Source of the DNA: Pyrinomonadaceae bacterium
Lineage (GTDB): Bacteria > Acidobacteriota > Blastocatellia > Pyrinomonadales > Pyrinomonadaceae
Length of the DNA: 61,504 nt
Assembly (NCBI GenBank): GCA_035606195.1
Contig: DATNFX010000313.1
Span: 1 to 61,504 of the forward strand
Direction: 5' to 3'
Below the pieces are notes generated by a model, which searched no databases, had not been told where the DNA came from, and was given only the letters and a program-made list of their open reading frames with translations. The stretch's first letter is position 1; each line of letters opens with the position of its first letter. Shown piece after piece: positions 21,295 to 60,068 of this stretch. Both the position numbers and the translations under genes were made by a program.

Positions 21295-21299
21295 AAACT

Positions 21300-22325
21300 A
21301 TGAGCGGGAGTTTCGTAGCCGTCAGACGCAAGACGGTAAGGTTGAGTAGCGCGGAACTGGTAACGACCGGTTACCTCTCGGCTGGCGCCAGGAATCTTCC
21401 TTTAGTGATCCAGCCAAAGGTTGAGGGAGTTGACCTCATCGGTTGGACTGAATCGCAGCGCGCTCTTATCGAATCAGAGTTGTTGGGACATGGCGCCATC
21501 CTGTTTCGCGATTTCGGCGTCGAGTCTGAGACGCACTTCGAAAAGTTCGCCCGCACGCTCACTCCGGAATTGATCGACTATCTGGAGCGCGCCGCGGCAC
21601 GACGCGAGGTCGCCCCGAACATTTTTACCTCGACCGAATATCCGGCCGACCAGGCAATCCCGCTGCATCATGAGATGTCGTACTCGCACAACTGGCCCGG
21701 CAAGATTTACTTCTACTGCGCGCAACCAGCGTTAAGTGGAGGGGCAACTCCGATATCGAACGACCGCGTAGTGATCAACCGCATCGACCCGGCGATCAAA
21801 GAGCAGTTCAGACGGAAGAAGGTCATGTACGTCCGAAACTTCGGTGTGGGACTCGACCTTTCATGGCAGGAAGCTTTTCAGACTACTGATCGCGCCGTCG
21901 TGGAAAGATACTGCGCCGGCGTGCACATGACGTGCGAGTGGCGCGACGGGGATCGACTGCGAACGCGATCTGTGCGGCAGACGTTCGCGACTCATCCTGT
22001 TACTGGCGAGATTGTCTGGTTCAATCACGCACACATGTTCCACATCTCAAACGTGGAGCATTCGGCCCGCGAGGCTTTGCTGGCCCACTTCCGTGAAGAC
22101 GAACTGCCGCGAAATGCGTTCTACGGTGATGGTTCACCGATTGAAAGCTCAGTGCTCAGCGAGATTAGAGAAGTTTACGCTGAGGCGGCCGTACGTTTTT
22201 GCTGGGAGGAAGGCGACGTGCTTTTACTCGACAACTTCCTTACCTCACATGGTCGTGAGGCCTTCACCGGGCCTCGCCGGATCCTGGTTGCAATGGCCGA
22301 TCTCTTTACCCCGAGCACGGTCTAA
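21300..22325 (+). CDS. TauD/TfdA-family (SyrP-like) Fe(II)/2-oxoglutarate hydroxylase, paralog 2
   Basis: 341 aa. PLHHEMSY and LTSHGREAF motifs. Collinear similarity to the preceding gene, which ends 5 nt upstream. Confidence 0.8.
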   Translation: MSGSFVAVRRKTVRLSSAELVTTGYLSAGARNLPLVIQPKVEGVDLIGWTESQRALIESELLGHGAILFRDFGVESETHFEKFARTLTPELIDYLERAAARREVAPNIFTSTEYPADQAIPLHHEMSYSHNWPGKIYFYCAQPALSGGATPISNDRVVINRIDPAIKEQFRRKKVMYVRNFGVGLDLSWQEAFQTTDRAVVERYCAGVHMTCEWRDGDRLRTRSVRQTFATHPVTGEIVWFNHAHMFHISNVEHSAREALLAHFREDELPRNAFYGDGSPIESSVLSEIREVYAEAAVRFCWEEGDVLLLDNFLTSHGREAFTGPRRILVAMADLFTPSTV

Positions 22326-22383: not shown

Positions 22384-23700
22384 GTGACAGAACAAGTCGT
22401 GGAGGGGTTCGAACTCTCGAGGCAACAACGGCGCATATGGTCTATGCAAGATAACGGCGACGCCTTTCAATCGCAGTGCGCGATCCTGCTCGAAGGCGCT
22501 TTGAATAAACGGGCGCTGCGTCAAGCCCTGCAAATAGCCATCGCGAGTCACGAAATTTTGCGCACTTCGTTCCGCTCGTTGTCCGGCATGAAGTTTCCCA
22601 TCCAGGTGATTAGCGAAGATGCAGATGCACCAGCTCTAAATGAGTGTGATCTGAACTGCGAACTCGAAGAACTCCTGTTGGAAGAACTTCGTACGCCTTT
22701 CGATCTGGATGCCCCCTCTCTGATTCGCTGCAAGCTACTGAATCTTTCGCAGGACAGGCATGTATTGATTTTGGGGCAGCCGGCGTTGTGCGCCGACGCC
22801 GAATCGCTCGTTCAGTTGTTTATCAAGCTGGGCCGCTTCTACGCATCATCTGTAACGGGCAAGGCCATTGTTGAGGAGCCCGTGCAGTTTGTGGACTTTT
22901 CAGAGTGGCAACGCGAACTGCAGACCTCCGCGGATGCGGCAGCCCAGAGAGAGTACTGGAGCCGGCAGATCACGACGGCAAACCCGGATTCACTGGTGCT
23001 TCCGACGGAAAGTAGTGAACGAACGGAAAATTTTGCGCCACGCCCGTTTAATTTCGAGATCCCCCGGGACATATCACAAAGCAGCGAAGCTCTCGCGCTT
23101 GCGCTTGATGCGTCAATCGAGACGCTGTTGTCGTCATGCTTACAAATCCTGCTGTGGCGTCTCACCGGACAGTCAGAAATTGTGACGGGCCATTTTTCGA
23201 ATGGCCGGCGGATCTCACACCTGCGTGAATGTCTCGGCCCGGCCGGCGATTATTTACCTCTTGCTGGTCGCTTCGATCGAAAGCTCCGATTCTCCGAGGT
23301 GGTGAAGCGCAACCATGAGGCAGTAAAAGCAAATCGCATCCACGAAGAATACTTCTCGCAAACAGACGAGAGCCAACTTCCTTTGCTCGCGAAGTTCGAT
23401 TTCATGGAATGGCCCAAACCATCGCTGGCTGCTGACGTGCGTTTCTCTCTCCTCAGAGTTTATAGCACCGCCGATCGGTACAAAGTGAGACTTTCCGTGA
23501 CGCGCCGGGATTCGACGCTAATGGCCGTGCTTCACCACGACGAGGCTTTGTATACATCGGAGTTCGCCGAACGCTTCGCGGGTCAATTCACAGCTCTCAT
23601 GCAAAGCGCATTGGCGCAGCCGGATTCGTCGATTGCCGATCTTGATGTGCTCGGCGAAGAGGAACGCCGGTTGGTGATCGATCAGTGGAACGATACCGCC
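22384..23700 (+). other. condensation-like domain lacking both catalytic histidines
   Basis: Collinear with C domains (N-terminal LSRQQRRIW), but the DRHVLILGQPALCADAESL segment replaces ..HHxxxDGWS. The 3' boundary is approximate. Confidence 0.7.
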
Positions 23701-26457
23701 ATCGAATGCCGCCGGGACGTCTGCTGGCACGAGTTGTTTGAGGAGCAGGTGGAACGCACACCTGGCGCGACCGCGGCGATCTTTCGCGAAGAAGAAATCA
23801 GCTTTACTGAACTGAACGCGCGCGCAAATCAGTTGGCCCATTACCTGCGATACTTGGGGGTCGGCCCGGAAACCAAAGTGGCGCTTTGCGTTGAGCGCAG
23901 CGTCGAGCTGATAGTGGGACTGCTCGCGATCCTCAAAGCCGGTGGCGCGTACGTGCCGCTGGACATTGCACAGCCGCCGCAGCGGCTCGCGAGGATGTTT
24001 AAAGATGCAAATGTAAGTGTGGTACTCACGCAGAGCGAGTTCGCGGAATCCCTCCCGCCACATAACGCAGCCGTCGTTTGCCTCGACGACAGCGCAGCGC
24101 TATTGGCAGACGAGAGCACCGATAACCTTGTCGCGACGGCGACTGCTGAAAATCTCGCTTATATCATCTACACATCGGGCTCAACGGGCACACCGAAGGG
24201 TGTGATGGTCGCTCATAGCTCCGTGGTGAACCTGGTGTTGGCATTGCGGCGCACGGTCTATGCGTCCTCGTCAACGTCTCTACGCGTCGGAGTGAATGCG
24301 CAAATCACGTTCGACGCATCAGTCAAGCAGTTAATACAACTGCTGTTCGGTCATACGCTGGTGTTCATCCCGCAGGAAGTGCGACTGACCGGCGACGCGT
24401 TGCTGGCATACACGGCGGAGAAGCAGGTGAACGCACTCGATTGCACGCCTGCGCAACTGCAATTGATGCTGGCTGAGGAGCGGCAGTTCAAATCTTTCCC
24501 CTCGTTGATGCTGGTCGGCGGTGAAGCGATCGACCACGATCTCTGGCATCGCATTGCCGCACAAACCGAACTCAGTTGCTACAACCTTTATGGACCAACG
24601 GAATGCACCGTGGATACCACTATCGCGCGCGTCGAAGGCGAAACGCCAACGATCGGACGCCCGATCGACAACGTGCGGGTCTACCTGCTCGACGAGCAGC
24701 TACGTCCGGCGCCCATCGGTGTGCGCGGTGAGATCTGCGTCGCAGGCGACGGGTTGTCGCGCGGTTATCTGCATCGACCAGACAAAACTGCGGAGAAGTT
24801 CGTCCCCGATGCATTCTCGAATATCTCCGGCGCGCGGTTGTATCGCACCGGCGACATGGCGCGGTTCCGATCTGACGGCCAGTTGGAATTTTTAGGCCGG
24901 GTAGACCATCAGGTGAAGCTGCGCGGTGTGAGAATCGAGCTCGGAGAAATCGAAGCTGCAATAAAACAAAACCACGCAGTGCGCGATGCCGTCGTACAAA
25001 TGCATGAGGACGCGCCGGGTTGCGCTCGGCTCGTCGCGTACGTCGCAGTGCACCGCCGGCACTTGCCTGTGGTGAGTGGCCGCGCACGATATCAATTGCC
25101 AAACGGCATGGCCATTCTGCATCAGAACAAGAACGAGACCGATTACCTCTACCATGAGATTTTTGAGCACCGGACCTACCTCAAGCATGGCATTGAATTA
25201 TCCGGGGAAGCCTGCGTCTTCGACGTCGGAGCAAACATCGGGCTCTTCACTTTGTTTGTTCTCGAACACTGCTCCAACGCGCGGATTTATGCCTTCGAGC
25301 CCATCCAACCGATCTTCGAAACGCTGAAGATCAATGTCGATCTTTACGGCGGGAAGGTGAGGCTCTTTCCCTTCGGTCTTTCCGCGAAAGCCGGTGTGGC
25401 CGCGTTTACGTTCTACCCGCATTACTCGATGATGTCTGGGTTAAGCGACTACGCGCTCGCTCGCAACGACGTCGAGGTGGTGAAGCGATACTTACTGAAC
25501 CAACAACGCGAGGGCACAGAAGGGGCCGACTTCCTGTTGCAGCATGCAGAGGAGTTTTTGCCTGAACGCTTCGTGGGCCACACGCACCAATCTCAACTCC
25601 AAACACTTTCAGAAGTTATCCGTGCGGAGAAAATTGACCGCATCGATCTGCTGAAGATCGACGTCCAGCGCGCCGAACTTGACGTGCTCAATGGAATCGA
25701 TGACAGCGATTGGGACAAGATTCAGCAAGTCGTGTTGGAGGCCCACCAGGAAGAAGGTGAGACCACGCATCGACGCCTGGATCAAATCTCTAGCCTGCTC
25801 GAGCGTCATGGATTCAAGGTAACGGCGGAACAGGACGATCTCTTGAGCGGAACCGATCGCCACAACGTCTACGCGAAACGAAGCGGCAGCCAAAAAAATA
25901 CATACGTTAGTATCGATCGCGACACGGCTCAACCATCACGCCTCGTTCCGCTCGTTTCGGCGACCGATCTTCGCCATTCACTGCAACCCCTTTTGCCCGA
26001 GTACATGATTCCGTCTGCGTTTGTCCTGCTCGAAGAGTTGCCACTGACACGCAACGGAAAGATAGATCGTGCAGCGTGCGCGGCTTTGGATGTCCGGCTT
26101 ACACCGGAAAACACGGCCTACGTCGCTCCACAGAACGAGATGGAAAAGATCGTCGCCCGCATCTGGCAGGAAGCACTCGGGGTCGAGCGGGTCGGGGCGC
26201 ACGACAACTTTTTCGAGTTGGGTGGCCATTCACTACTGCTGGCCCACGTTCATAACAGGCTCGTAACCACTCTCGACAGGCAAATCTCCATGGTCGAGAT
26301 GTTTCAGCACCCGACTGTCAGCACTTTGGCCCAACGCCTGAGTCAGCATGGACCACGCCCGCGTTCACTGCAAGCCGCGCACGAACGAGCGGCCCGTCAA
26401 AAGGAAGCAATGGAGCACCAGAAGATGATGATGAGGAAGGCAGGCACGGCTGTATGA
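22384..26457 (+). CDS. NRPS module: (His-less C-like)-A[FkbM-type methyltransferase insert]-T
   Basis: GTG start. QPALCAD (22777-22797) occupies the position of HHxxxDG. A core YTSGSTGTPKG (~24169). FkbM-like VFDVGANIGLFTLF sits between the A8 region (RLVAYVAV) and A9/A10 (LPEYMIPSAFVLLEELPLTRNGKIDR). T serine at 26230. Confidence 0.95.
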   Translation: MTEQVVEGFELSRQQRRIWSMQDNGDAFQSQCAILLEGALNKRALRQALQIAIASHEILRTSFRSLSGMKFPIQVISEDADAPALNECDLNCELEELLLEELRTPFDLDAPSLIRCKLLNLSQDRHVLILGQPALCADAESLVQLFIKLGRFYASSVTGKAIVEEPVQFVDFSEWQRELQTSADAAAQREYWSRQITTANPDSLVLPTESSERTENFAPRPFNFEIPRDISQSSEALALALDASIETLLSSCLQILLWRLTGQSEIVTGHFSNGRRISHLRECLGPAGDYLPLAGRFDRKLRFSEVVKRNHEAVKANRIHEEYFSQTDESQLPLLAKFDFMEWPKPSLAADVRFSLLRVYSTADRYKVRLSVTRRDSTLMAVLHHDEALYTSEFAERFAGQFTALMQSALAQPDSSIADLDVLGEEERRLVIDQWNDTAIECRRDVCWHELFEEQVERTPGATAAIFREEEISFTELNARANQLAHYLRYLGVGPETKVALCVERSVELIVGLLAILKAGGAYVPLDIAQPPQRLARMFKDANVSVVLTQSEFAESLPPHNAAVVCLDDSAALLADESTDNLVATATAENLAYIIYTSGSTGTPKGVMVAHSSVVNLVLALRRTVYASSSTSLRVGVNAQITFDASVKQLIQLLFGHTLVFIPQEVRLTGDALLAYTAEKQVNALDCTPAQLQLMLAEERQFKSFPSLMLVGGEAIDHDLWHRIAAQTELSCYNLYGPTECTVDTTIARVEGETPTIGRPIDNVRVYLLDEQLRPAPIGVRGEICVAGDGLSRGYLHRPDKTAEKFVPDAFSNISGARLYRTGDMARFRSDGQLEFLGRVDHQVKLRGVRIELGEIEAAIKQNHAVRDAVVQMHEDAPGCARLVAYVAVHRRHLPVVSGRARYQLPNGMAILHQNKNETDYLYHEIFEHRTYLKHGIELSGEACVFDVGANIGLFTLFVLEHCSNARIYAFEPIQPIFETLKINVDLYGGKVRLFPFGLSAKAGVAAFTFYPHYSMMSGLSDYALARNDVEVVKRYLLNQQREGTEGADFLLQHAEEFLPERFVGHTHQSQLQTLSEVIRAEKIDRIDLLKIDVQRAELDVLNGIDDSDWDKIQQVVLEAHQEEGETTHRRLDQISSLLERHGFKVTAEQDDLLSGTDRHNVYAKRSGSQKNTYVSIDRDTAQPSRLVPLVSATDLRHSLQPLLPEYMIPSAFVLLEELPLTRNGKIDRAACAALDVRLTPENTAYVAPQNEMEKIVARIWQEALGVERVGAHDNFFELGGHSLLLAHVHNRLVTTLDRQISMVEMFQHPTVSTLAQRLSQHGPRPRSLQAAHERAARQKEAMEHQKMMMRKAGTAV
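25051..25980 (+). other. FkbM-family methyltransferase domain embedded in an A domain (between A8 and A9)
   Basis: VFDVGANIGLFTLFVLEH...YAFEP...FGLS...LLKIDVQRAELDVLNG is flanked by A-domain core motifs. Boundaries approximate. Confidence 0.8.
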
Positions 26458-29400
26458 GTAACAACGACGTGATCGGAGCAACGCAAGGCATCGCTATCGT
26501 CGGCCTGGCCGGCCGGTTTCCGCGTGCCGGGACGGTCGCGGAGTTTTGGCGAAATCTCGTTGCAGGCACGAAGACCATTTCGTTCTTTAACGACGAGGAG
26601 TTGCGTGGGGAAGGAATTGCAAAGCACGTCATCGCCGATCCTTCTTACGTAAAGGCCAAGGGAATGCTCGAGGACATCGAGTGGTTCGACGCCCCGTTCT
26701 TTGGCATCACACCCAAGGAAGCCGAGCTGATGGATCCGCAACAGCGCCTTTTTCTTGAGTGTTGCTGGACCGCGCTTGAGGTTGCAGGCTACGACGCGGA
26801 ACAGTTCGCCGGCGCGATCGGGCTGTTTGCCGGCGCCAGCATCAACAGCTATCTGCTGCTGAATCTCTTATCAAATACGGGCCTGATCGATCGGACCGGC
26901 ATACTTCAGTCGTCAATTCCGAATCGCACCGATCATCTGACCACCAGGTCAGCCTACAAGCTGAATCTGAAAGGCCCTGCGGTTACGGTCCAAACGGCTT
27001 GTTCGACGTCGCTGGTCGCGGTGCATCTTGCTTGTCAAAGCTTGTCCAGTTACCAGTCAGACATTGCGCTAGCGGGCGGAGTTACGATCAGCGTTCCCGG
27101 TAAGTCGGGTTACTACTATCAGGAGGGCGGCGTGCTTTCGCCCGATGGTTACTGTCGTCCTTTCGATCACAAAGCGAAGGGCACTGTTGTCGGCAATGGA
27201 GTTGGAGTAGTCGTTCTCAAACGGCTTGTGGATGCGCTTGCTGATGGCGACTCGATTCACGCAGTAATCAAAGGTTCGGCGATCAATAACGACGGCTCGC
27301 TGAAGGTCGGCTACACGGCGCCAAGTCTCGAGGGCCAATTAGAAGTGATCGCCACGGCACAGGCGGTGGCGGCCATCAGTCCTGACACAGTCTCCTATGT
27401 TGAGGCACACGGGACCGGTACTGCGCTCGGAGATCCGATCGAGATCGCGGCGCTCACCGAAGTTTTCCGCGCGAGCACGGACCGCAAAAACTTCTGTGCA
27501 ATCGGATCGGTAAAGGCAAACATCGGACATCTCGACGTAGCTGCCGGTATTGCGGGCCTGATCAAGACAACACTCGCGCTTGAACACGGCGTGATCCCGC
27601 CAGTGCTGAATTTTGAGCAGCCAAATCTGCAGATAGATCTCGCGACCAGTCCTTTTTACATCAACCCTGCGCCAGTTGAGTGGAAGAGTAACGGCAAACC
27701 GAGACGCGCGGGCGTCAGTTCATTCGGCATCGGCGGCACAAATGCGCATGTCGTGCTTGAAGAAGCGCCGGCACGCGCCAAATCTGTTGCGTCACGTCCG
27801 AGTCAGTTGCTGTTGCTCTCCGCCGCGACCTCTTCGGCGCTGGAAACTGCAACCGCGAATCTCAGTACGTACCTTGAAAAGAACACCACTGTAGATCTTG
27901 CGGACGTTGCCCACACGCTTGCGCTTGGGCGCAAAGCTTTTCGTCATCGCCGCGTGCTTGCGGCCCAGGATGTGGGAGATGCAGTCCAGGCGCTAAATGC
28001 GCTTGATCCGCGGCGCGTCATGACCGCGTTGCAGGAACCACGAAACCGTCCGGTGATGTTCATGTTTCCGGGCCAGGGGGCGCAGTTCGTCAACATGGGG
28101 CGCGAGCTTTACGAAACAGAAGTTACCTTCCGCGCCGAAGTCGATTGTTGCGTTGAGCAACTGCGGCCGCACCTTGGACTCGATCTGCGCGAGATTCTCT
28201 ATCCGAAAGCCGGCGCGCTTGCATGGAGTGCAGAACAGTTGCGACAGACTGCGATCACGCAACCGGCACTTTTCGTCACGGAATATGCGCTCACGAAATT
28301 GTTCATGGAGTGGGGCGTACATCCTGCCGGAATGATCGGTCATAGCATCGGCGAGTTTGTCGCCGCCTGTCTCGCCGGGGTGCTTTCGTTGCCCGATGCC
28401 ATTGCTCTCGTAGCAAGCAGAGGCCGCCTGATGCAATCGGCTGAAAAAGGCGAGATGCTAATTGTGCCACTACCTGAAAGCGATCTTCAGGCGCTGCTTG
28501 GTCCGGACCTCTCAATCGCGTCCGTAAATGCTCCTTCACTTTGCGTAGTCGCTGGTCCAACAACTGCGATCGCCCGCCTGGACGAGACGTTGAGGGCCCA
28601 GGACGTGTCGTGTCGTCGCCTGGAAACTTCCCACGCGTTTCACTCGCAAATGATGGATCCGATTCTCGACGCGTTCCGGTCTGAAGTCGATCGAGCGAAG
28701 CTCAAGGCTCCCACAATCCCTTATGTTTCCAACCTGACGGGTACCTGGATCCGCGCCGAAGAGGCCACTGATCCGAACTATTGGGTAAGACAATTAAGGC
28801 AGACGGTGCGTTTCGGCGAAGGCGTGCTGCGGTTGTTCGAACAGCCTGATTCGATCCTCCTTGAAGTTGGACCAGGGAAGATGCTGATGACGATCGCGCG
28901 CTGGCATCCCGCAAAAACTGCCGGGCAGACAGTTTTAACTTCGCTGTCCGCTCCGAATGAACCCGCCTCGGATCTGATCGCGCTGCAAAACAGTTTGGGC
29001 AAACTTTGGCTCGCCGGCGTGAATATCAGTTGGCGCGACTTTTATGCGCACGAGCGGCGGCAGCGTATCTCCCTGCCAACTTATCCGTTTGAGCGTCGTC
29101 GTTACTGGATCGACCCTGCGAACCAAAACACGGCGTCGGCCGCTGAGTTTAACCTGCGGAAAAAATCTCATATCAGCGAGTGGTTTTACGTTCCCGGCTG
29201 GAAGAGTTCGGCGTTACCGGCACGTCTGGAATCAATCGCTGCGGATAAAAAAGACTCCGCATGGGTGTTGCTTGTCGACGAGTGCGGCATGGGCCAACGT
29301 CTCGCAGAGAAACTCAAGACCGCTGGTTGCGAAGTGATAACCGTGCCCGCCGGCGATCAATTCGCCGCGCGTGGTGAGAGAGAATTCGTAATCGCGCCGT

Positions 29401-32400
29401 CGTCCCGGCAAGACTTCGAACTGCTCCTGCAAAAACTCGATGAGCGCGGAACTCAGCCGGCGGGGTTCGTCCATCTTTGGAATGTGACGCCCGCGTTCGA
29501 TTCGCTCGACGACGTCGAGCAAGCGATTGACTGCGGCCGGCGCGGCTTTTACTCCCTGCTTTCACTTGCACAAGCACTCGGAAATCAAAACGAGTCGAAT
29601 CCGACCGAAGTAATAGTGGTGACCAATGATTTGCACCGCGTTACGGGCGACGAGACGTTATGTTCTGACAAGGCCACAGTCCTTGGCCCGTGTCGCGTCA
29701 TTCCACAGGAGTACAAACATGTCACCTGTCGCAGTGTCGATGTCACGTTGGACCATAACCAGGATCGGCTGGCCGAGTTGCTCGCGATTGAACTCTTAGC
29801 AAGACCGCCTGATAACACGATTGCCTACCGCAATCAGCAACGATGGGTACAAACATTCGAGCCATACCCGTTGCCGAAACCCGCTCACGAGGGCACACGG
29901 CTACGACAAAAAGGTGTGTACCTCGTCACGGGTGGTCTCGGCGGTATGGGTCTGGTTTTTGCCGAGCACTTTGCGAAAACGATGGGTGCCCGACTCGCGC
30001 TCGTTGGCCGTTCGGCTTTTCCCGCGCGCGAACGCTGGCGGCGCTGGCTTGGCACTCACGACGAACACGACGAAGTCTCCCAAAAAATTCGCCGAATACA
30101 GGAGTTAGAAACATACGGCGCGCGGGTGGAGGTCTTTAGTGCTGACGTAACCGATCTCGAGCAGATGAGAGCCGTGGTTGCGCAGGTCAATGAGCAGTTT
30201 GGACCAATCAATGGAGTCATTCACGCGGCCGGTGTTCCCGGCGGCGGCATGATCCAGCTCAAGACCGCGGAAAAAGCGGCGGCGATTCTCGCGCCGAAAG
30301 TTGAAGGCACACGAGTACTCGGCCAACTGTTCCAAAAGGCCGAACTGGATTTTCTTTTTCTCTGTTCGTCAAGAAGCTCCACTCTCGGTGGATATGGTCA
30401 GATCGATTATTGCGCTGCCAACAACTTCCTCGACGCTTTCGCGCATTACTACACTGCGAAGACCGGGACGTTTACTGTCGCAGCTGCCTGGGACGGCTGG
30501 CAGGAAGTGGGAATGCTGGTCAAAACAGCGTCGCAATACGGCGTCGCAAAACTATCGAAGCAGAGCACCAATCATCCATTACTGGCCCAACGAATTGCCC
30601 AGCCGGACGGCCGCGAAACTTACATTACTCGGTTCGGCGTAGCGGACAGTTGGATACTTGAAGAGCACCGTATCGGCGGGAGAGCCGTGTTGCCCGGCGT
30701 CACTTATCTGGAGATGGCGCGCGCCGCCTTCGAGCAACTCAGTGGTGTCGCGGGACCAATCGAGTTGCGCGACGTATTTTTCGTCACGCCCATGAGTCTC
30801 GCTGATGACGAGAAGAGAGACGTGCGTCTTGTGCTCGAGCGAAAAGGTGAAGGTTACAAATTCCTGGCGTCGAGTAAAGCGTCGGGCAACGGCGACACGG
30901 AGCTGGATTGGCAGGACCACGCCGTCGGTGAAGTCGGACTGGCAGACTCCAGAGCGCCGCGTCAGCACGATCTACAGGAAATCATCAGGCGCTGCAACAA
31001 GCAGGAGTTTCTCGTCAGTGACGACGAACGCGATCCGGACCTCGGACCACGTTGGCAGAACATCAGGAAAGTCTATCTCGGCGAGCGCGAGATGGTCGTC
31101 ATCTTCGAGCTGAACGAAGTTTTCGCGGCTGACCTGGACCAATTAAAGCTCCATCCTTCACTCCTCGATCGAGCGGCCGGCACGGGAATGCTCTACATGG
31201 AGCTCGAAGGCATCTACCTCCCGATGTCTTACAAACGACTGCGCGTCGAACGTCCTCTGCCGCGACGGATCTTCGCGCACATCAGGGAGTCTGAAGACAA
31301 TTATTCCAAACGAGAGACGATTACATTTGACGTTTTCATCATGGACGAGAACGGCAATGAGCTGGTCGAGATTGCAGAGTTTAGCGAGAAGCGAATCAAC
31401 GACTTGACCCAGCAGGTGCGCGCGATGGGCGATAAGAACGCCAGCGTTAACCTCAGTGAAACGGTGGCTGCCGCTGCCGGAAACATTTACGAAGAAAGTC
31501 TTCGTGAAGGAATCACGTCGCGCGAAGGTGTTGACGTTCTGACGCGCATTCTTGATGGTGCGACCGTTCCTCACGTGATTGTTTCGACAAAGGACCTCGC
31601 AGCTTCGATAGCCGAAGCCAATGCGTTCGTCGAAACGAAAGTCTCGGCGGAGATCGCCAGGCTCCAGGTCGCACGCCCGTCGCACCCACGGCCGGATTTG
31701 CAAGCCGACTATGCGCCGCCCCGTAACGAAGTCGAAGCGATGCTTGCGGGCATCATGCAGGAAGCGCTCGGCGTGGATCGTGTCGGTATCAACGACAACT
31801 TCTTTGAGCTGGGCGGCGATTCGGTCCTCAGCATTCAAATTATCGCCCGCGTGAATCGCGCCGGATGGCGCATAACGCCGCAGCAGCTCTTCCAACACCA
31901 AACGATAGCTGAACTTGCCACCGTCACTGTCAAAACGGACGAGCCGGCCGCGCCGCCCGACGCCACTCCGCCGAAAGGAGTGCCCACCGGTTTCGGAGTA
32001 GCGGGCCTTGCAGGACGAAAGCTCAACAAGCTGTCGCGACTGCTGGAAGAGGAAGATGATTTCGACGATCAAGAAGAAGACGGATCGGTTGCTGAACCGT
32101 TCACGCAAGTCATTTCTGTTCCGGGTAACGGCTCAGGATCGATCCCAACGAGGAAAATCGATTTCAGTCTCTTCTATTTTGCCGCCGACAACAGCAAATC
32201 GGGCGCGGACAAATATCGACTCTATCTTGAGGGGGCAAAGTTTGCCGACGAGAACAACTTCGAGGCAGTGTGGACACCGGAACGTCATTTTCACGAAAGC
32301 GGCGGACTCTACCCAAATCCTTCTGTCTTGAGTGCCGCGCTCGCCGCGGTCACGAAACGGATCAAGCTGCGCGCCGGAAGTGTGGTGTTACCACTGCACC

Positions 32401-33242
32401 ACTCGATACGCGTCGCGGAGGAGTGGTCCGTCGTCGACAACCTTTCGAACGGACGCGTCGGAGTGTCGTTTACGTCGGGTTGGATTCCAAACGACTTCGC
32501 ATTTTTCCCCGAACGCTTCGCCAACAAACGCGAGGAAATGCTGCACGGAATCCGGGAAGTACAACAACTCTGGCGCGGCGAGACGATTGCCGCAATCGAC
32601 GGTGCAGGGAAGAGTCGAGAACTCAGAATTTTGCCGCGACCAATTCAACCTGAGTTGCCGATCTGGCTTACGTGCAGCGGAGATCCACAAATGTTCGTCA
32701 AGGCGGGTGAGTTAGGACTCAACGTTTTGACCGCGCTGCTCTCTCAATCGGTGGAAGAGGTAGCGAGCAAGATAAAACTCTATCGCGATGCCCGGGCCCG
32801 CCACGCACACGATCCTGATACCGGCCGTGTCACGCTAATGCTTCACACCTTCGTGGGAAAGGAAGAGCAGACCGTCGTGGATATCACGCGTGGTCCTTTG
32901 AGCGAGTACCTCAACGCGCATGTGGGTTTGATCGAAACGATGACACAGAGTCTCGACATCAAGCTCGACATTAATAAGGAGCAATATCTCGACTCGCTCA
33001 TCGATTTCGCTCTTGAGCGCTATTACCACATTGCCTCTTTGATCGGCACGCCGCAGAAATGCCTGCCCCTGGTTAACCGGCTCCGCGATATCGGCGTGGA
33101 CGAGCTGGCTTGCTTCATCGATTTCGGTGTCCAGGTAGACGCGGTGCTCGATGCGTTGAGGCCTTTGCATGAGCTCAAGGAGCTCAGTGAAACAGCCGTC
33201 CCTAAGCAGAATTCGCAGCTTGCGCGATCGGAATCTGCGTAA
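26454..33242 (+). CDS. PKS module with NRPS-type carrier and terminal monooxygenase: KS-AT-KR-DH-T-LLM
   Basis: The ATGA start overlaps the upstream stop. KS Cys at 27000 (TACSTSL), plus EAHGTGT and KANIGH. AT GHSIGE (Ser 28344) with HAFH (malonyl-type). KR GVYLVTGGLGGMG (~29912). DH HPLL...EEHRIGGRAVLPG (His 30666) and LHPSLLD. T GGDS (Ser 31821). Luciferase-like monooxygenase domain from ~32154 (FSLFYFA...WTPERHF...). Confidence 0.95.
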   Translation: MSNNDVIGATQGIAIVGLAGRFPRAGTVAEFWRNLVAGTKTISFFNDEELRGEGIAKHVIADPSYVKAKGMLEDIEWFDAPFFGITPKEAELMDPQQRLFLECCWTALEVAGYDAEQFAGAIGLFAGASINSYLLLNLLSNTGLIDRTGILQSSIPNRTDHLTTRSAYKLNLKGPAVTVQTACSTSLVAVHLACQSLSSYQSDIALAGGVTISVPGKSGYYYQEGGVLSPDGYCRPFDHKAKGTVVGNGVGVVVLKRLVDALADGDSIHAVIKGSAINNDGSLKVGYTAPSLEGQLEVIATAQAVAAISPDTVSYVEAHGTGTALGDPIEIAALTEVFRASTDRKNFCAIGSVKANIGHLDVAAGIAGLIKTTLALEHGVIPPVLNFEQPNLQIDLATSPFYINPAPVEWKSNGKPRRAGVSSFGIGGTNAHVVLEEAPARAKSVASRPSQLLLLSAATSSALETATANLSTYLEKNTTVDLADVAHTLALGRKAFRHRRVLAAQDVGDAVQALNALDPRRVMTALQEPRNRPVMFMFPGQGAQFVNMGRELYETEVTFRAEVDCCVEQLRPHLGLDLREILYPKAGALAWSAEQLRQTAITQPALFVTEYALTKLFMEWGVHPAGMIGHSIGEFVAACLAGVLSLPDAIALVASRGRLMQSAEKGEMLIVPLPESDLQALLGPDLSIASVNAPSLCVVAGPTTAIARLDETLRAQDVSCRRLETSHAFHSQMMDPILDAFRSEVDRAKLKAPTIPYVSNLTGTWIRAEEATDPNYWVRQLRQTVRFGEGVLRLFEQPDSILLEVGPGKMLMTIARWHPAKTAGQTVLTSLSAPNEPASDLIALQNSLGKLWLAGVNISWRDFYAHERRQRISLPTYPFERRRYWIDPANQNTASAAEFNLRKKSHISEWFYVPGWKSSALPARLESIAADKKDSAWVLLVDECGMGQRLAEKLKTAGCEVITVPAGDQFAARGEREFVIAPSSRQDFELLLQKLDERGTQPAGFVHLWNVTPAFDSLDDVEQAIDCGRRGFYSLLSLAQALGNQNESNPTEVIVVTNDLHRVTGDETLCSDKATVLGPCRVIPQEYKHVTCRSVDVTLDHNQDRLAELLAIELLARPPDNTIAYRNQQRWVQTFEPYPLPKPAHEGTRLRQKGVYLVTGGLGGMGLVFAEHFAKTMGARLALVGRSAFPARERWRRWLGTHDEHDEVSQKIRRIQELETYGARVEVFSADVTDLEQMRAVVAQVNEQFGPINGVIHAAGVPGGGMIQLKTAEKAAAILAPKVEGTRVLGQLFQKAELDFLFLCSSRSSTLGGYGQIDYCAANNFLDAFAHYYTAKTGTFTVAAAWDGWQEVGMLVKTASQYGVAKLSKQSTNHPLLAQRIAQPDGRETYITRFGVADSWILEEHRIGGRAVLPGVTYLEMARAAFEQLSGVAGPIELRDVFFVTPMSLADDEKRDVRLVLERKGEGYKFLASSKASGNGDTELDWQDHAVGEVGLADSRAPRQHDLQEIIRRCNKQEFLVSDDERDPDLGPRWQNIRKVYLGEREMVVIFELNEVFAADLDQLKLHPSLLDRAAGTGMLYMELEGIYLPMSYKRLRVERPLPRRIFAHIRESEDNYSKRETITFDVFIMDENGNELVEIAEFSEKRINDLTQQVRAMGDKNASVNLSETVAAAAGNIYEESLREGITSREGVDVLTRILDGATVPHVIVSTKDLAASIAEANAFVETKVSAEIARLQVARPSHPRPDLQADYAPPRNEVEAMLAGIMQEALGVDRVGINDNFFELGGDSVLSIQIIARVNRAGWRITPQQLFQHQTIAELATVTVKTDEPAAPPDATPPKGVPTGFGVAGLAGRKLNKLSRLLEEEDDFDDQEEDGSVAEPFTQVISVPGNGSGSIPTRKIDFSLFYFAADNSKSGADKYRLYLEGAKFADENNFEAVWTPERHFHESGGLYPNPSVLSAALAAVTKRIKLRAGSVVLPLHHSIRVAEEWSVVDNLSNGRVGVSFTSGWIPNDFAFFPERFANKREEMLHGIREVQQLWRGETIAAIDGAGKSRELRILPRPIQPELPIWLTCSGDPQMFVKAGELGLNVLTALLSQSVEEVASKIKLYRDARARHAHDPDTGRVTLMLHTFVGKEEQTVVDITRGPLSEYLNAHVGLIETMTQSLDIKLDINKEQYLDSLIDFALERYYHIASLIGTPQKCLPLVNRLRDIGVDELACFIDFGVQVDAVLDALRPLHELKELSETAVPKQNSQLARSESA
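32154..33239 (+). other. C-terminal luciferase-like monooxygenase (LLM) domain
   Basis: KIDFSLFYFAADNS...AKFADENNFEAVWTPERHFHESGGLYPNPSVLSAALA...GRVGVSFTSGW resembles the FMN-dependent LLM domains fused to NRPS/PKS (MupA/MtaG-Ox type). Confidence 0.75.
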
Positions 33243-33420: not shown

Positions 33421-36400
33421 ATGAAAATGAAGAACGTCGAAGATATCTATCCGCTTTCGCCGATGCAGGAAGGAATTCTCTTCCACACGCGACACGATCC
33501 GGCGTTTGCGATGTACTTCGAAATTATCACCGGCACAATGCACGGTGAGGTGGATCTCAGTGCGTTCGCACGCGCCTGGCAGTCGGTGGTAGACCGCCAC
33601 GCGGTATTGCGAACGGCTTTCGTCTGGGAAGGACTAGACGAGCCCATCCAGGTGGTACGAAGGCGCGCGAAGTTGACCGTGACTAATCACGACTGGCGAT
33701 CTTTGACCATCGACGAACAGTCGAATGCGCTCGCGGAACTGTTTGCGGCTGAACGTGCGCTTGGTTTTGATCTCTCCAAAGCCCCATTGATGCGCGTTGC
33801 CCTCATTCAGACTGGCGCCGGCTCTTACCGTTTTGTTTGGACTTACTATCACGGTCTGGTCGATGGTTGGTCAGGCTCGCTTGTTTTCAACGACGTTCTT
33901 CTCTTCTACGAAGCGTTGACTAACGGCGTCGAGATCAACTTACCGGCCGCCCCTTCTTTTCGCAGCTACATTGATTGGGTCCGCAGCCATGACTTCGCTG
34001 AAGCCCGCGAGTACTGGCGGCGCACGTTGAGAGGATTCAAGGCCGCGACGCCCATAGATTTTGTAAGCCCGCATGAGACCAGCTCCTCGGATAGGACAAC
34101 GAGTTATCGCGAACGGGAGTTTAACCTAAACGCAGAAACAACCGCCCGCCTGCTGCGACTGTCACGTCAGGAGCGGTTGACGTTGAACACAATCTGCCAG
34201 GGCGCGTGGGCCATTTTGCTGCATCGCTACAGCGGCCAGCGAGACGTCGTGTTTGGTGTGACCGTGTCGGGTCGTCCGCCGGAGCTCGAACACATCGAAA
34301 CGATGATCGGCATGCTCATCAATACGCTGCCCGCGCGTATTGAAGTGACGCCCGATGCGAAGTTAGTCCCCTGGCTCAAGGACATTCAGGCGCGGCAGTG
34401 GGAAATGCGGCAGTACGAATACAGTCCGCTGGTTGAAGTCCAGGGTTTGAGCGATGTGCCTCGCACCAATCCACTGTTCGATTCGATCGTCTCTTTTGAA
34501 AACCATCCGATCGATCATTCGCTCTTGAAGAGGAATGACCGCGCTCAGGTGCGCGACGTGGTCCACTATCACACCGCCACCGGTTACCCAATCAATATCA
34601 TCATCGAACCCGGCGCCGAGCTGTCGGTAAAACTGCTGTACGACTTTGGCCGAATTGACGATGCCAGAGTGGATCGCATCCTGGGCCATCTCGGACATTT
34701 GCTGACGGACATTGCCGCCGATCCGGATCGAATAATTTCGAAATTCGCAGTACTTACGCCTCACGAACAACAAGAACTGCTCGTCGAGTGGAATATGACG
34801 GCAGCGGAATACCGCCGCGACGTTTGTTTGCACGAGTTGTTTGAGGAGCAGGTGGAACGCGCGCCTGAGAGGCCCGCAGTTGTCTTTCGTGACCGGCAAT
34901 TGAGCTTTTCAGAATTGAACGCGCAGGCCAATCAGCTCGCCCGTTACCTGCGGCGACTGGGTGTGGGCCCGGAAGTCAGAGTCGCTGTGTGCATGGAACG
35001 TTCGGTGGAAATGGTCCTGGGAATGATCGCCACTCTGAAAGCCGGCGGCGTTTATGTGCCGCTCGATCCGTCACAGCCTACACAACGCCTGAAGTTCTTG
35101 TTTGGCGATGCAAATGTTCGCGTCGTACTGACGCAGAAAGCGCTCACGGAACTGCTGCCGGCGTGTGATTCAGAAATCGTTTGCCTGGACGAATGCCTGA
35201 CACAACCCGAGTACACGACAAATCTGCCGGTCAGCACGACAGCGGAAAGTCTCGCTTACGTGATTTACACGTCAGGCTCAACGGGTACGCCGAAAGGCGT
35301 GATGGTCCAGCATCGCTCCGCAGTCAATCTGGTAGGCGCGTTACAACAAGAAATCTACCAGGATCAGAACGATGCGTTGCGCGTGGGCCTGAATGCACAG
35401 GTGATATTCGACGCGTCAATCAAGCAACTGTTGCAACTTCTTTCCGGCCATACGTTGGTAGTGGTTCCCGAAGAAATACGGGCGAATCCGGATGAGTTAC
35501 TGGGCCACGTCGCTGAGCAGCAGTTGGACGTGCTTGATTGCACACCATCACAACTGCAACTGCTTTTAACTTCGAAATCGTGGCGTGAGAGGCGACCAAA
35601 GTTGATGCTAATTGGCGGCGAATCGTTGCGCAGCCATCTCTGGGACCGTCTTGCCGCGGAACAGGGTACAGAGTTCTACAACGTCTATGGTCCAACCGAG
35701 TGTACGGTTGATGCCGCGATCGGTCACATCCGTACCGCCGGTGAGCCGCCCAACATCGGACGCCCGATAAACAATACGAGAATCTATCTGCTCGACGATC
35801 GACAACAGCCGGCGCCGTTGGGAGTGCGTGGTGAGATCTGTGTCGCCGGTGAGTGTCTCGCGCGCGGCTATCTGAATGGGCCGGAGTCAACGGCGGAGAA
35901 GTTCATCCCTGAACCGTTTTCGGGAGCGGCAGGCGCGCGAATGTATCGCACTGGCGATGTGGGCCGCTATCTCGAAGACGGGCGTTTGCAGTTTGTAGGA
36001 CGCGCCGACCACCAGGTGAAGGTACGTGGCGTGCGCATCGAGCTGGGCGAGATTGAGACCGCTCTTAGACAACACCACGGCGTGCGCGACGCGGTGGTCC
36101 AGGCCCACGGCGAGTCTTCGGAAGATCGACGCCTGGTTGCTTATGTTGTGCCGGAGCGTACCCGAAGTTTGCCGCTCGTAGCAAAATCCAATGGAGACGA
36201 TCTCTTAGCCGGCAAACAAGTATCGAAACTCCCGAACGGCATGGTCATAGCGGGCCACGGCAGTCTGCAGGCGAGTGGCGTGTATCGCGAGATCTTCGAA
36301 GACAGGATCTACATGAAGCACGGCATTCGCCTGGACGAAAACGCCTGTGTCTTCGATGTAGGCGCAAACATCGGTCTCTTCACGTTGTTTGTAAAGCAAC

Positions 36401-39400
36401 AGTCGCCAGGCGCTCGCGTTTACTCTTTTGAACCGCTGCCGCCGAACTTCGAAGCGTTGCAGACGAACGTAAAGTTCTATGGCCTCGACGTCGAGCTTTT
36501 TGAGTGTGGACTTTCGAGCCGGCGTGAGACGGCGACTTTCACTTTTTATCCCCATGCAGCGGCGATGTCGGGCAAGGGTAGCCGCGTCGATGAAGACAAG
36601 GCCGCGGCCCGCGCGAACGTGGGCAGTTGGCTTAAGACCTTTGAGCACAATTCTCAGACGCCGGGTCAGTACGATCTCGATAGTTTTGTCGAACACTACC
36701 TGATTGGCGAGTCGTATACCTGCCAGCTCCGCACCCTTTCCGAGGTCATTCGTGAAAACGAAATTGAGCGTATCGATCTGTTGAAGCTCGACGTAGAACG
36801 AAGCGAGTTTGACGTGGTTTTGGGAATTGAGGACGAGGATTGGAAGAAGATCAGACAGTTTGTGATCGAAGTCCATTCCGATGGGCTGCTGGAGCAGATC
36901 ACAGCGCTCTTGCGCACACGCGGATTCACGTTTGTAGTGGAGAAGAGTGCGATCGTGGAAACGACCAGCCAGGACATCGTTCGGGGTTACATGCTTTATG
37001 CGTGGGACCCGGAGCAGCGGGCCGCTAGCAATGGTAATGGCGCGAATCCTGCACCCGAGGTCCCCGAATTGTCGCCGGACGATTTGCGAAATTTCCTGCG
37101 GGAACATCTGCCGATCCAGATGATCCCGTCGGCGTTTGTTTTGCTGAAAGAGCTGCCGTTAATGGCCAGCGGCAAAGTTGACCGCTGCGCACTACCTGCG
37201 CCGGATGGCCCAATAATCCTGACGGACGAACACGTCGCGCCGCGAACTCCCGTTGAAGAGATCGTCGCGGGAATCTGCGCCTCGGTCCTGCGCCTCGATG
37301 ACATCAGTGTGACCGGCAACTTTTTCGATCTCGGCGGTCATTCACTCCTGGCGGCGCAGGTGATTTCTCGCGTACGTGAGACATTTCATATCGAACTGAG
37401 TCTCCGCAATCTGTTCCTGAAGCCGACGGTCGAGGGGCTTGCAGAGAACATCGAAAGATCGCTGAAGGCCGGCGAACAGGTAGCGGTCGGGACTATCGCG
37501 CGAGTTTCCCGTGCGGTCGACCTGCCACTTTCCTTCTCGCAGCAGCGGATCTGGTTCCTGGACCAGATGGCCGGCGGCACGCCTTACTACAACATTATTT
37601 CGCGCGTGCGTCTGCAGGGAGAATTGAATCTCGACGCACTGCAAAGGGCGTTCGCGGAGATCGTCCGGCGTCATGAGATTCTCCGCACGACGTTTGCAAA
37701 CTTTAGAGGTCGCCCAACGCAGATCGTCAGTCCGTGGACGCCGTCAACGTTGGAGATCGAAGAGATTGCGGGCGAAACGGACGAGGAACGAGCAGAAAAT
37801 GCTCGTTTGCTTGCACGGCAAGAGGCCATGGAGCCGTTTGATTTGAGCAGCGGCCCGCTGTTACGCGTTCGCATTCTGCGTCTTAGCGACGCAGAGCACC
37901 TCGCTATTCTCAAGCTGCACCACGTGATCTCGGACGGATGGTCCACCAGTGTGCTCGTGAATGAGCTCTCGACGCTTTACTCGGCTTTCTTGCAGGACCA
38001 ACCGTCGCCGCTGGCTGAGTTGCCGTTTCAATATAGCGATTACGCAGTTTGGCAACGCGGATGGTTGCAGGGCGAAGTGCTCGAAACGCAACTGAACTAC
38101 TGGCGCCGGCAACTCAAGGACGCTCCGGCATTGCTCGAGCTGCCCACAGACAAGCCACGCCCTGCGATTCAAACTTTCAACGGCGCTCCCGAGCACTTCG
38201 AGATTGGACCAGAGCTGGCGGCGCGACTGCGTGGACTCTCCCGGGACGAAGGCGCAACGCTCTTCATGACATTGCTGGCGGCGTTTACGACGCTGCTCTA
38301 TCGCTACTCCAATCAAAACGACATCGTAATTGGCACCGACATCGCCAACCGCACGCGCGCTGACATCGAAAACCTGATCGGTTTCTTCGCAAACATGGTG
38401 CTGTTGCGCAGCAACGTGTCTGATAATCCGACTTTTGCGGAACTGCTGGGCCGGATTCGCGAAACTGCTCTCGGCGCTTATGCGCATCAGGATCTGCCTT
38501 TCGAAAAACTGGTTGAGGAACTGCAGCCGGAACGCAGCCTGAGCCACGCGCCGTTCTTCAATGTGGTTTTCGTTCTGCAGAACACGCCGCGGAACGCGCT
38601 TGAGCTGCCCGGCCTCAAAGTCACGCCCGAACCGTTTGAGAGCAACTTCACGCGCTTCGATCTCGAGTTTCATCTCTGGGAAAGCGAAGAGCGGCTGAGC
38701 GGATTTCTCATTTCAAACACCGATCTGTTCGAACCTGACACGATACGACGGTTACTCAACCACTTCACTAATTTGCTCGAAGGAATTGTCGCTGATCCGG
38801 ATCGCCGGATTGCCAGCTTGCCCTTGCTCTCAGTGGACGAGCGCTGTCGCTTCTTGACGACTGCGAACAACACAACCGCCGATTACCCGCGAAACGGACT
38901 CATTGCGCAACACTTTGAGTCACAGTGTGCGCGAACACCGGAGGCCACAGCACTGATTTTCGGCGAACGCGAGATGACTTACCACGAACTCAATCGCCGT
39001 GCTAATCAGCTGGCGCACCATCTCAAGTCGCTTGGCGTCGGGCCGGAGATCCCGGTCGCGCTCTGCATTGAACGTTCGTTTGAAATGGTCGTCGCGCTGC
39101 TGGCGATTATCAAAGCAGGTGGTTACTACGTGCCGCTGGATCCTGAATATCCGATCGGCGGGTTGGAGTTCATATTTAACGACCTGGCGATCCCCGTCGT
39201 GGTAACGCAAGAGTCGCTGTTGGGCGTGCTGCCTGCGCACTGGTCGCACGTGTTGAGTTTGGATACCGATTGGGACGCCATCGCTCGGAAGAGTGATGAG
39301 AATCTCCGCCTTGAGGGAATAGCCGAGCACCTTGCCTATGTGATGTACACGTCAGGTTCGACGGGCCAGCCGAAAGGTGTCGCGGTCACGCACCGCGGCG

Positions 39401-47335: not shown

Positions 47336-47569
47336 ATGGACCGAGATGACGCAGAAGATCAAACAATCTATAAAGTTGTGCTCAACCACGAAGAGCAGTA
47401 CTCGATTTGGCCTGCCGATCGCGAGAATGCACTCGGTTGGTTTGACGCCGGTAAAACCGGTATGAAGGCCGAATGTCTGGAGTACATCAAAGAGGTCTGG
47501 ACTGACATGAGACCTCTGAGCCTGCGCAAGCATATGGAGGAAGCTGCCGCAAAGCAGTCGAGCGCGTAG
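47336..47569 (+). CDS. mbtH: MbtH-like protein
   Basis: 77 aa. GGAGGG RBS at 47324-47329. Hallmark [24 protein letters not shown]...AECLEYI with the conserved Trp residues. Confidence 0.9.
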
Positions 47570-48657: not shown

Positions 48658-48736
48658 ACCGGATCTTCTCTGAGGCTTGCACCAGAGAATAAGCACCTTC
48701 ATGCAATCGAACCCAAAGCTAAAGGAGCCGCTCTCG

Positions 48737-60023: not shown

Positions 60024-60068
60024 AGAAGTCTTTCAAGAGACTCAATCGGTCAAAGCTGAGTAACCTCA

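Follow-up and report, generated by a model that had tools for sequence, protein, structure and literature searches.

The closest known system to the gene described here is the myxoglucamide (mxg) pathway MxgA(Ox)-MxgB-MxgC-MxgE of Cystobacterineae sp. MCy9003 (Angew. Chem., August 2026; PMC13638107). Our gene, hereafter called PKS-LLM, encodes a polyketide synthase (PKS) module that ends in a luciferase-like monooxygenase (LLM), and lies at positions 26454..33242 on the forward strand of a stretch of 61,504 nucleotides, the window, from contig DATNFX010000313.1 of a Pyrinomonadaceae bacterium (Acidobacteriota; assembly GCA_035606195.1). In the mxg pathway, an α-ketoglutarate dioxygenase β-hydroxylates L-glutamate bound to a peptidyl carrier protein (PCP), and MxgB has the domains I-A(Glu)-PCP. 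MxgC, a PKS module that extends with malonate, has a dehydratase (DH) with H1396 and D1558 in which an LGP motif (L1516) replaces YGP; the L1516Y substitution abolishes production. MxgE consists of a C-like domain with the motif HPxxxDG fused to a flavin mononucleotide (FMN) monooxygenase (Ox). In the Ox mutants F511A and H548A, the α-hydroxy and α-keto functions are lost and a shunt product with a β,γ-double bond builds up (PMC13638107).

PuwE, with the domain order KS-AT-ACP-AmT-Ox-C-A-PCP, contains an Ox that has been assigned to the 2-hydroxylation of the PKS-bound acyl chain and, jointly with the aminotransferase (AmT), to the 3-amino-2-hydroxy acyl unit of the puwainaphycins (PMC4219810). 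MupA has been studied in vitro, where it α-hydroxylates a β-keto thioester bound to an acyl carrier protein (ACP); it requires the carrier, rejects the β-hydroxy analogue and relies on a flavin reductase that is encoded elsewhere (PMC10952193). The results below suggest that PKS-LLM is a cis-fused, methyltransferase-associated acidobacterial version of the mxg-type cassette, with the domain layout of the colibactin protein ClbB, and not as a new kind of enzyme.

Domain organisation of PKS-LLM

PKS-LLM is a single open reading frame (ORF) of 2262 amino acids with the domain order KS-AT-psiKR-KR-DH-linker-T-LLM. A preliminary description of the window had read this order from sequence motifs, and it is upheld by the Pfam matches: KS at residues 12-388 (E-values of 7.5e-70 and 6.6e-43), a KS-AT linker at 390-517, AT at 535-813 (1.9e-51), the psiKR-type family PF21394 at 950-1059, KR at 1154-1350 (2.5e-48), PKS_DH_N at 1374-1470, PS-DH at 1519-1650, PP-binding at 1764-1823 and Bac_luciferase at 1914-2217 (2.8e-42). 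Every motif cited in that description is also in its place, namely GHSIGE at residues 629-634, HAFH at 727-730, TGGLGGMG at 1159-1166, HPLL at 1374-1377, HRIGGRAVLPG at 1405-1415, LHPSLLD at 1566-1572 and FFELGGDSVLSIQ at 1783-1795. Pfam matched no Condensation or E domain, no ADH_zinc (ER) domain and no aminotransferase domain in the ORF.

The KS domain (26487..27788, residues 12-445; all domain coordinates refer to the forward strand) contains Cys183, whose codon starts at nucleotide 27000 as proposed for the active site, together with His319 and His359. It is followed by a CurL-like/RhiE-like linker (27789..28043) and the AT domain (28044..28943, residues 531-830), in which Ser631 is part of GHSIGE and the HAFH motif supports the proposed malonyl type. 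A post-AT linker containing YPFERRRYW (28944..29168), of low confidence and non-globular in the AlphaFold model, leads to the psiKR structural subdomain (29169..29903, residues 906-1150) and the KR catalytic subdomain (29904..30548, residues 1151-1365). The latter contains GGxGGxG, K1282, S1306, Y1319 and N1323, and neither the LDD motif nor the Trp motif used for assigning KR stereochemistry is present in it. The DH, which had been placed after the KR, is located there with its His/Asp pair intact (30549..31448, residues 1366-1665): His1405 lies in HxxxGxxxxP, Leu1530 in DLGPRW and Asp1572-Arg1573 in HPSLLDR. The remainder of the protein consists of a conserved linker of about 90 residues (31449..31718, residues 1666-1755), a PCP-type carrier, T, with Ser1790 in FFELGGDSVLSIQ (31719..31958, residues 1756-1835), and, after a spacing of about 65 residues, the LLM (32154..33239, residues 1901-2262), a TIGR04020 FMN-dependent enzyme and the proposed α-oxygenase.

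Conservation was assessed in an alignment of 40 homologues of the same architecture, with identities of 53-100%. The Cys-His-His triad of the KS, Ser631 and HAFH of the AT, the Rossmann motif and K1282, S1306, Y1319 and N1323 of the KR, His1405 and Asp1572 of the DH and Ser1790 of the carrier are all invariant, as are the core motifs F1907/F1909 and H1945 of the LLM. Leu1530, which gives the DH an LGP motif in place of YGP or FGP, is likewise found in 40 out of 40 relatives. Because the catalytic residues and the LLM core motifs are invariant, the alignment indicates that the architecture is conserved and selected, and no chance run of motifs.

The preliminary description saw no DH between the AT and the KR, and this observation stands, since the region is a psiKR of the Rossmann type. 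The AT-KR segment is equal in length and homologous to the psiKR of many KS-AT-KR-T modules that lack a DH, and the AlphaFold model of residues 831-1372 contains two Rossmann-type β-α-β subdomains. With this model, Foldseek matched whole psiKR+KR didomains over about 450 columns; the matches include DEBS KR1, MlnKR and StsA KR, with KRs from macrolactin and bacillaene synthesis and the KR of a keto-acid NRPS (nonribosomal peptide synthetase) module among them. A cryptic DH in the AT-KR linker was ruled out by the length match to psiKR and by the Rossmann didomain model, which contains no hot-dog.

The AlphaFold model of residues 1366-1835, by comparison, shows a confident double hot-dog, with predicted local distance difference test (pLDDT) values mostly of 85-95. 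Its best matches are PksJ DH1, Brevibacillus BGC11 DH3, CurF/J/K and GphF DH1, with target-normalised TM-scores of 0.83-0.88, and a sequence search of the PDB was concordant with the structural match to PKS dehydratases. Judged from the predicted structure, the domain that follows the KR is a true DH of the double-hotdog PKS type. A product-template domain or another fold at this position was ruled out, as the top structural matches are authentic PKS DHs.

PfaA- and HglE-type synthases and the enediyne synthases (PKSE) likewise place a KR ahead of a PS-DH-type dehydratase, and the preliminary description suggested kinship with them on this ground. PKS-LLM would then resemble the synthases of polyunsaturated fatty acids (PUFA), heterocyst glycolipids or enediynes and might act iteratively, and the PfaA model TIGR02813 does give a partial match that spans the KS-AT region. 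However, the score is 432.5 bits against a cut-off of 1010.1, and PKS-LLM has by Pfam a single carrier after the DH, with no ACPs, tandem or otherwise, between the AT and the KR and no phosphopantetheinyl transferase. The synthases in question are iterative and have neither NRPS neighbours nor an LLM, unlike PKS-LLM, which lies between NRPS modules and is translationally coupled. Its DH is similar to the DHs of trans-AT and Cur synthases, and the protein is collinear with ClbB. The suggested kinship fails on these points and deserves hardly any credence.

In the literature, the notation KS-AT-KR-DH mostly gives a functional order, and the lead came from the order KS-AT-KR-DH-ER-T of ClbB. Pfam places the domains of ClbB from Escherichia coli Nissle 1917 (WP_001518711.1) in the order A-T-KS-AT-KR(1796-1967)-DH(2003-2255)-ER(2306-2598)-ACP, and BLASTP aligns PKS-LLM to it in one collinear high-scoring segment pair that extends from the start of the KS into the DH, with 34% identity over 1675 positions. 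In both proteins, the physical order is KS-AT-psiKR-KR-DH, the module comes after an NRPS module, and malonate is used to lengthen an aminoacyl chain. However, ClbB goes on with an ER and an ACP to give a saturated unit, while PKS-LLM has no ER and a PCP-like carrier. The motif of the ClbB DH is the canonical YGP (HFHYGPRWH), its catalytic Asp is not followed by Arg, and ClbB has no LLM. Repeated KS-AT-psiKR-KR-DH-ER-ACP modules were observed in multimodular cis-AT PKSs of Calothrix parasitica NIES-267 (L012; AP018227.1, 847-15758) and of a Nostoc metagenome-assembled genome (L008). Since the ClbB-type order is used throughout these PKSs, it represents a module lineage rather than a one-off arrangement. 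Modules with KR-DH-carrier and no LLM were also found in Acidobacteriota, Chloroflexota, Actinomycetota and others. As far as sequence comparison goes, the KR-before-DH order of PKS-LLM is the ClbB-type cis-AT layout, which is typical of NRPS-linked modules.

The carrier had been described as PCP-like, and its best solved relatives are indeed PCPs of NRPSs (the T domain of PvdL and the T domain of LgrA that precedes an E domain); it also contains the GGDS motif. Carriers of the GGDS type usually pair with E domains. The linker of about 90 residues in front of the carrier has the motif …EGITxxEGVxVxxRIL…VVSTxDL…, is predicted to be helical with low pLDDT, and always occurs just before a GGDS-type carrier. 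It is also present in L015, L016, L023, P0007 and others, and while it follows the DH in PKS-LLM, it follows directly after the KR in DH-less cyanobacterial and acidobacterial modules.

The assignment of the LLM to the MupA type is borne out by a match to TIGR04020 (MupA/Atu3671) at residues 1904-2242, which scores 486.5 bits against a cut-off of 244.45 and covers positions 1-341 of the 341 in the model. Among solved structures, the LLM is closest to PuwE's Ox domain (PDB 6KET), with an alignment from end to end and an E-value of 2.8e-116. In the preliminary description, an LLM ahead of the next C domain was considered an oddity. The arrangement has precedent, because the Ox of PuwE is likewise placed in cis, after the PKS carrier and before the next C domain (PMC4219810), and MxgE has a C-Ox didomain (PMC13638107). 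PuwE differs from PKS-LLM in that its Ox is partnered with an aminotransferase, which PKS-LLM lacks, and not with a KR or DH, and in that its substrate is a fatty-acyl-derived β-keto/β-amino chain that becomes a 3-amino-2-hydroxy acid. MupA and OocM are also TIGR04020 proteins that α-hydroxylate a carrier-bound thioester with FMNH2 from an external reductase (PMC10952193). However, they are free-standing, act in KS0-containing bimodules of trans-AT PKSs and have a strict need for a β-keto group, and their step is followed by a KR and no dehydration.

Related LLMs, 50-55% identical to that of PKS-LLM, were observed mid-way inside intact A cores in L013 and L021. In two of the three fusion states described below, what remains of an A sub-domain (AMP-binding_C) is split into two halves on either side of the LLM, located at residues 1935-1972 and in a tail of about 75 residues in P0011, and at residues ~2300-2360 and in a tail in P0087. 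Because of these two flanking halves, the sequences suggest that the LLM was formerly inserted in an NRPS A sub-domain and that the A core was lost later.

Comparison with the myxoglucamide pathway and proposed chemistry

PKS-LLM and the NRPS gene that lies upstream (22384..26457, forward strand) share four bases, in which the ATG of the former overlaps the stop codon of the latter, and the next NRPS gene (33421..46902, forward strand) begins 179 bases past the PKS-LLM stop; PKS-LLM is therefore an internal gene of a single operon-like assembly line. The upstream module, which would supply the KS substrate, has the order C-like (I-domain-like)-A(Glu)-T with an embedded FkbM domain. Its N-terminus reads LILGQPALCADAESL at the motif position, and there is no HHxxxDG in the first 450 residues. 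The downstream protein of 4493 amino acids starts with a C domain (YHGLVDG), which would accept the PKS product, followed by A(Glu)-FkbM methyltransferase (MT)-T and further modules. The Stachelhaus code of the upstream A domain is DAKDLGLVDK and that of the first downstream A domain is DAKDLGVVDK, which we take to be the reference code for Glu. In both Glu A domains that flank the PKS, an embedded FkbM-type (Methyltransf_21) MT separates the A core from the A sub-domain, at residues ~947-1145 of the upstream protein and ~979-1170 of the downstream protein (within 33421-37600 of the window). Two genes for TauD-family α-ketoglutarate dioxygenases, presumed to be Glu β-hydroxylases, precede the upstream module (20257-21294 and 21300-22325, forward strand).

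The window matches the published mxg features nearly one by one. Both have a fatty-acyl-initiated NRPS, a TauD-type dioxygenase tied to the Glu module (the window has two, at 20257-22325), and an I-like domain without HHxxxDG at the start of a Glu-coded module that feeds a malonate-extending PKS with a KR. The catalytic His, Leu and Asp of the DH are found at 1396/1516/1558 in MxgC and at 1405/1530/1572 in PKS-LLM, with nearly equal spacing, and an aromatic residue of the LLM is separated from His1945 by 37 positions, as F511 is from H548 in MxgE, going by the published description of the latter. By analogy, PKS-LLM would functionally correspond to MxgC and the Ox half of MxgE in one polypeptide. 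In the window, unlike in the mxg pathway, the Ox directly joins the carrier of the PKS, the TauD genes stand alone, a far longer NRPS lies downstream and the host is acidobacterial.

The preliminary description held that the role of the LLM cannot be deduced. This now appears too pessimistic, as the conserved gene context points to the α-oxidation of a Glu-derived γ-amino acid. In the proposed chemistry, the upstream I-A(Glu)-MT-T module would load L-glutamate, which a TauD dioxygenase from one of the two neighbouring genes would β-hydroxylate on the carrier, and the FkbM domain would probably O-methylate the hydroxylated residue. The KS, whose domain is intact, would then condense lipopeptidyl-Glu with malonate loaded onto T by the AT to give a γ-amino-β-ketoacyl thioester, in which the β-keto group would be reduced by the KR and the product dehydrated by the LGP-type DH. 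As in the mxg pathway, the double bond probably reaches or passes through the β,γ-position. By analogy with the characterised enzymes, the LLM would oxygenate C-2, first to the α-hydroxy and then to the α-keto thioester, with O2 and with FMNH2 supplied by a reductase whose gene lies elsewhere, and the first C domain of the next protein would join this unit to the next Glu as an α-hydroxy or α-keto amide. We consider it probable that PKS-LLM extends Glu, hydroxylated or O-methylated, in this way, with processing by the KR and the DH followed by oxidation at C-2. The most likely product unit is an amino acid two carbons longer than Glu with the oxidised carbon next to the following peptide bond.

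Several points weigh against this proposal. Two domains of the mxg pathway are absent from the window: the E domain of MxgC and the C-like domain of MxgE, which is proposed to form the vinyl group by decarboxylative dehydration. In addition, both Glu modules of the window bear FkbM methyltransferases. Because of these differences, the exact LLM substrate and the product may not be those of the mxg pathway, and a vinyl side chain is not expected in the product. The comparison was made with the features described in PMC13638107 and not with the sequences (GenBank OR000721), so the homology to MxgC and MxgE rests on the features reported there. We infer by analogy that the Ox of MxgE is a TIGR04020 LLM; the word luciferase is absent from that paper, which also left the timing of the Ox step open for the mxg pathway itself. 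The A-domain specificities were read by hand from the Stachelhaus positions, no flavin reductase is encoded in the window, and the literature on natural products of Acidobacteria yielded no characterised product for such clusters. In addition, MupA needs a β-keto group and rejects a β-hydroxy group, so the LLM could act before the KR and not after the DH.

The last point leads to the main rival explanation, which has the same end product and was our initial working hypothesis. Here, the timing would be that of MupA and PuwE: the LLM would hydroxylate C-2 of the β-ketoacyl-T directly after the condensation, the KR would then produce a 2,3-diol, and the DH would remove the 3-hydroxyl group to give a 2-hydroxy-2-enoyl form (an enol), which would turn into the α-keto thioester by tautomerisation. 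The strict substrate requirement of MupA, which hydroxylates a β-keto ACP thioester only (PMC10952193), is consistent with this timing, as is the closest relationship of the LLM to PuwE, where KR and DH do not intervene, and the joint conservation of the catalytic residues of the KR, the DH and the LLM. However, dehydration of a 2,3-diol thioester is not known for any DH, and the Ox-dead mxg mutants accumulate a dehydrated β,γ-ene product (PMC13638107), which implies that the KR and the DH there act without prior hydroxylation. Because of the shunt-product data, the early action of the LLM was demoted to a rival that we regard as unlikely, and oxidation after the KR and the DH is preferred.

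In a second alternative, an option raised in the preliminary description, the KR and the intact DH would give an α,β-enoyl thioester (a vinylogous Glu) that the LLM epoxidises through a nucleophilic flavin peroxide to a 2,3-epoxy-4-amino acyl unit. Action through a nucleophilic peroxyflavin is possible for flavin monooxygenases of class C. Epoxidation by an LLM-type enzyme is reported for mensacarcin MsnO8 in the part of PMC8739492 that cites Maier 2015. However, the closest characterised relatives, PuwE, MupA and the Ox of MxgE, are all assigned to α-hydroxylation or α-oxidation, and the LGP-type DH is tied to a β,γ-ene and not to a stable 2-enoyl product (PMC13638107), so that epoxidation seems quite improbable. 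Still less probable is a role like that in MtaG, where the LLM would leave the polyketide unit untouched and α-hydroxylate the next Glu on the downstream carrier, resulting in N-C cleavage and a terminal amide. While the related LLMs within the A domains of L013 and L021, and the A sub-domain fragments that family variants B and C retain around the LLM, fit such a role, the LLM is fused to the PKS carrier, several more modules follow downstream in the assembly line, and the shunt product of the Ox-dead mxg mutants is altered at the polyketide-derived C-2 (PMC13638107).

Gene context and fusion states among the relatives

The gene context was examined in six clusters: the window, L001, L002, L085, L086 and L087. 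In all six, the A domain of the module that directly precedes the PKS-LLM is coded for Glu, with DAKDLGVVDK or, in the window and L086, a variant of it by one residue. The same module begins with a C-like domain that lacks HHxxxDG, and in five out of six, a TauD gene adjoins this module or is fused to the preceding NRPS. The DH signature, which consists of (D/E)xD-L-GPRW and HPxLLD-R, is present in all 43 LLM-bearing proteins that were fetched. The signature was also found in KR-DH-T-E proteins, which have the architecture of MxgC, including a partial protein from Polyangia. In contrast, the KR-DH modules that have no link to an LLM (ClbB, P0012, P0029, L005, L006 and L009) have Tyr, Phe or Trp in place of the Leu and no Arg after the Asp. 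The Leu is thus correlated with the presence of an LLM. A scan of the genome collection was dominated by generic GGDS carriers, and a DH was present in only about 12 of the 80 loci.

The relatives show three states of fusion: T-LLM, which is that of the window, T-(half A sub-domain)-LLM-tail, and T-C-LLM. The C domain of the T-C-LLM proteins resembles E/TIGR01720-type domains and reads AHALVADG (P0087, P0080 and P0101), that is, HAxxxDG without the second His, as in the C domain of MxgE. The T-C-LLM clusters L001 and L086 are near-replicas of the mxg cluster, with the TauD domain fused to the end of the preceding NRPS. Two traits of the mxg system recur in the acidobacterial P0087 and P0080: ahead of the LLM, they carry the C-like domain that lacks the second His, and their preceding NRPS is fused to a TauD domain, as in MxgA. 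Protein searches with a T-C-LLM fragment and with the DH-T-E fragment of L004 recovered acidobacterial and gammaproteobacterial proteins and one partial Polyangia protein, and no published MxgC or MxgE.

The MTs and the C-like domains are distributed in a complementary manner. The FkbM-bearing Glu modules (window, L002 and L087) have no such MxgE-like C domain, and in the clusters without an MT, this domain is fused (L001 and L086) or encoded nearby as a free-standing C protein of 392 amino acids (L085). The FkbM MT and the MxgE-like C domain are thus mutually exclusive in six out of six clusters, which is a small sample. Because the two never co-occur in these clusters, the small sample suggests that the hydroxylated Glu side chain has two alternative fates, methylation or decarboxylative dehydration to vinyl.

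Surrounding gene cluster and implications

The lipopeptide NRPS-PKS assembly line is initiated by an NRPS with the order FAAL-ACP-C-A(Ser)-T-C-A(Ala)-T-C (10356..20213, forward strand). About 240 bases upstream of this gene there is a NusG-family paralogue of 174 amino acids (9590-10114, forward strand), which may be a LoaP-like antiterminator dedicated to a very long operon. It is preceded by a Crp/cNMP-binding regulator (8526-9260, forward strand), and a Crp-type regulator was also observed at cluster L085. Immediately before the cluster, the opposite strand carries genes for an amidase (4868-6448) and a DUF7003 protein (7094-7798).

The C-terminus of the 4493-residue NRPS (residues 3484-4493, at ~43870-46902 of the window) has the order C-T-C, with an A-less module, a terminal C domain and no TE. 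The large NRPS is followed by an MbtH-like ORF of 77 amino acids that was recognised by eye (47336-47569, forward strand); an MbtH gene is also present at the related locus L001. Further downstream are genes for an OTCase (47656-48657), a PhyH dioxygenase (48677-49558), a LanB-N-like protein that has the N-terminal domain of lantibiotic dehydratases only (49577-51982) and an M28 peptidase (51993-54338). Together with these genes, the A-less end without a TE could indicate loading in trans or dependent on tRNA, or an unusual release. A second FAAL-ACP-C-A-T protein with an Ala code is encoded at 54687-60023 (forward strand), and the next ORF (~60060-61504, forward strand) opens with a C domain and runs beyond the window. 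This second FAAL protein would belong either to a lipopeptide line of its own or to the same cluster, as another branch initiated with a lipid. The GC skew reaches 0.21 at 58-60 kb.

For the interpretation of domain orders, the results correct the common assumption that a KR before a DH marks a PUFA- or enediyne-type synthase. For genome mining, the DH signature L-GPRW and D-R, together with the upstream I-A(Glu) module, provides a sequence handle. The cis-fused form is a convenient system in a single polypeptide for the questions that the mxg pathway raises about the timing of the Ox and the origin of the β,γ-double bond.

The sole route of this type, in which an FMN oxygenase and an LGP-type DH act on a unit built from Glu and malonate, is that reported in 2026 for one myxobacterium (PMC13638107). 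With the window and about 40 relatives, the mxg-type logic is found to be widely distributed among uncultured Acidobacteriota from soil (Pyrinomonadaceae, Ca. Angelobacter and Blastocatellia), and the cassette occurs in at least three fusion states: T-LLM, T-A sub-domain remnant-LLM and T-C-LLM. The LGP/Asp-Arg DH and the TIGR04020 LLM may constitute a portable cassette for α-oxidised γ-amino acids in Acidobacteriota, Myxococcota and other phyla. A joint reading, which is possible but on balance doubtful, is that the fused module builds a residue that is new to natural products and that the LGP/Asp-Arg DHs form a dedicated subfamily of double-bond-shifting enzymes within this portable cassette. 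The KR-DH(LGP/DR)-T-LLM fusion, the O-methylating Glu modules and the lack of an MxgE-type C domain may point to a non-vinyl 4-amino-2-oxo (or 2-hydroxy) diacid unit derived from β-methoxy- or β-hydroxy-glutamate as the candidate residue. α-Ketoamides and α-hydroxy amides are classic electrophilic and transition-state-mimicking groups of protease inhibitors, and if true, the candidate residue would be a new α-ketoamide warhead in acidobacterial lipopeptides.

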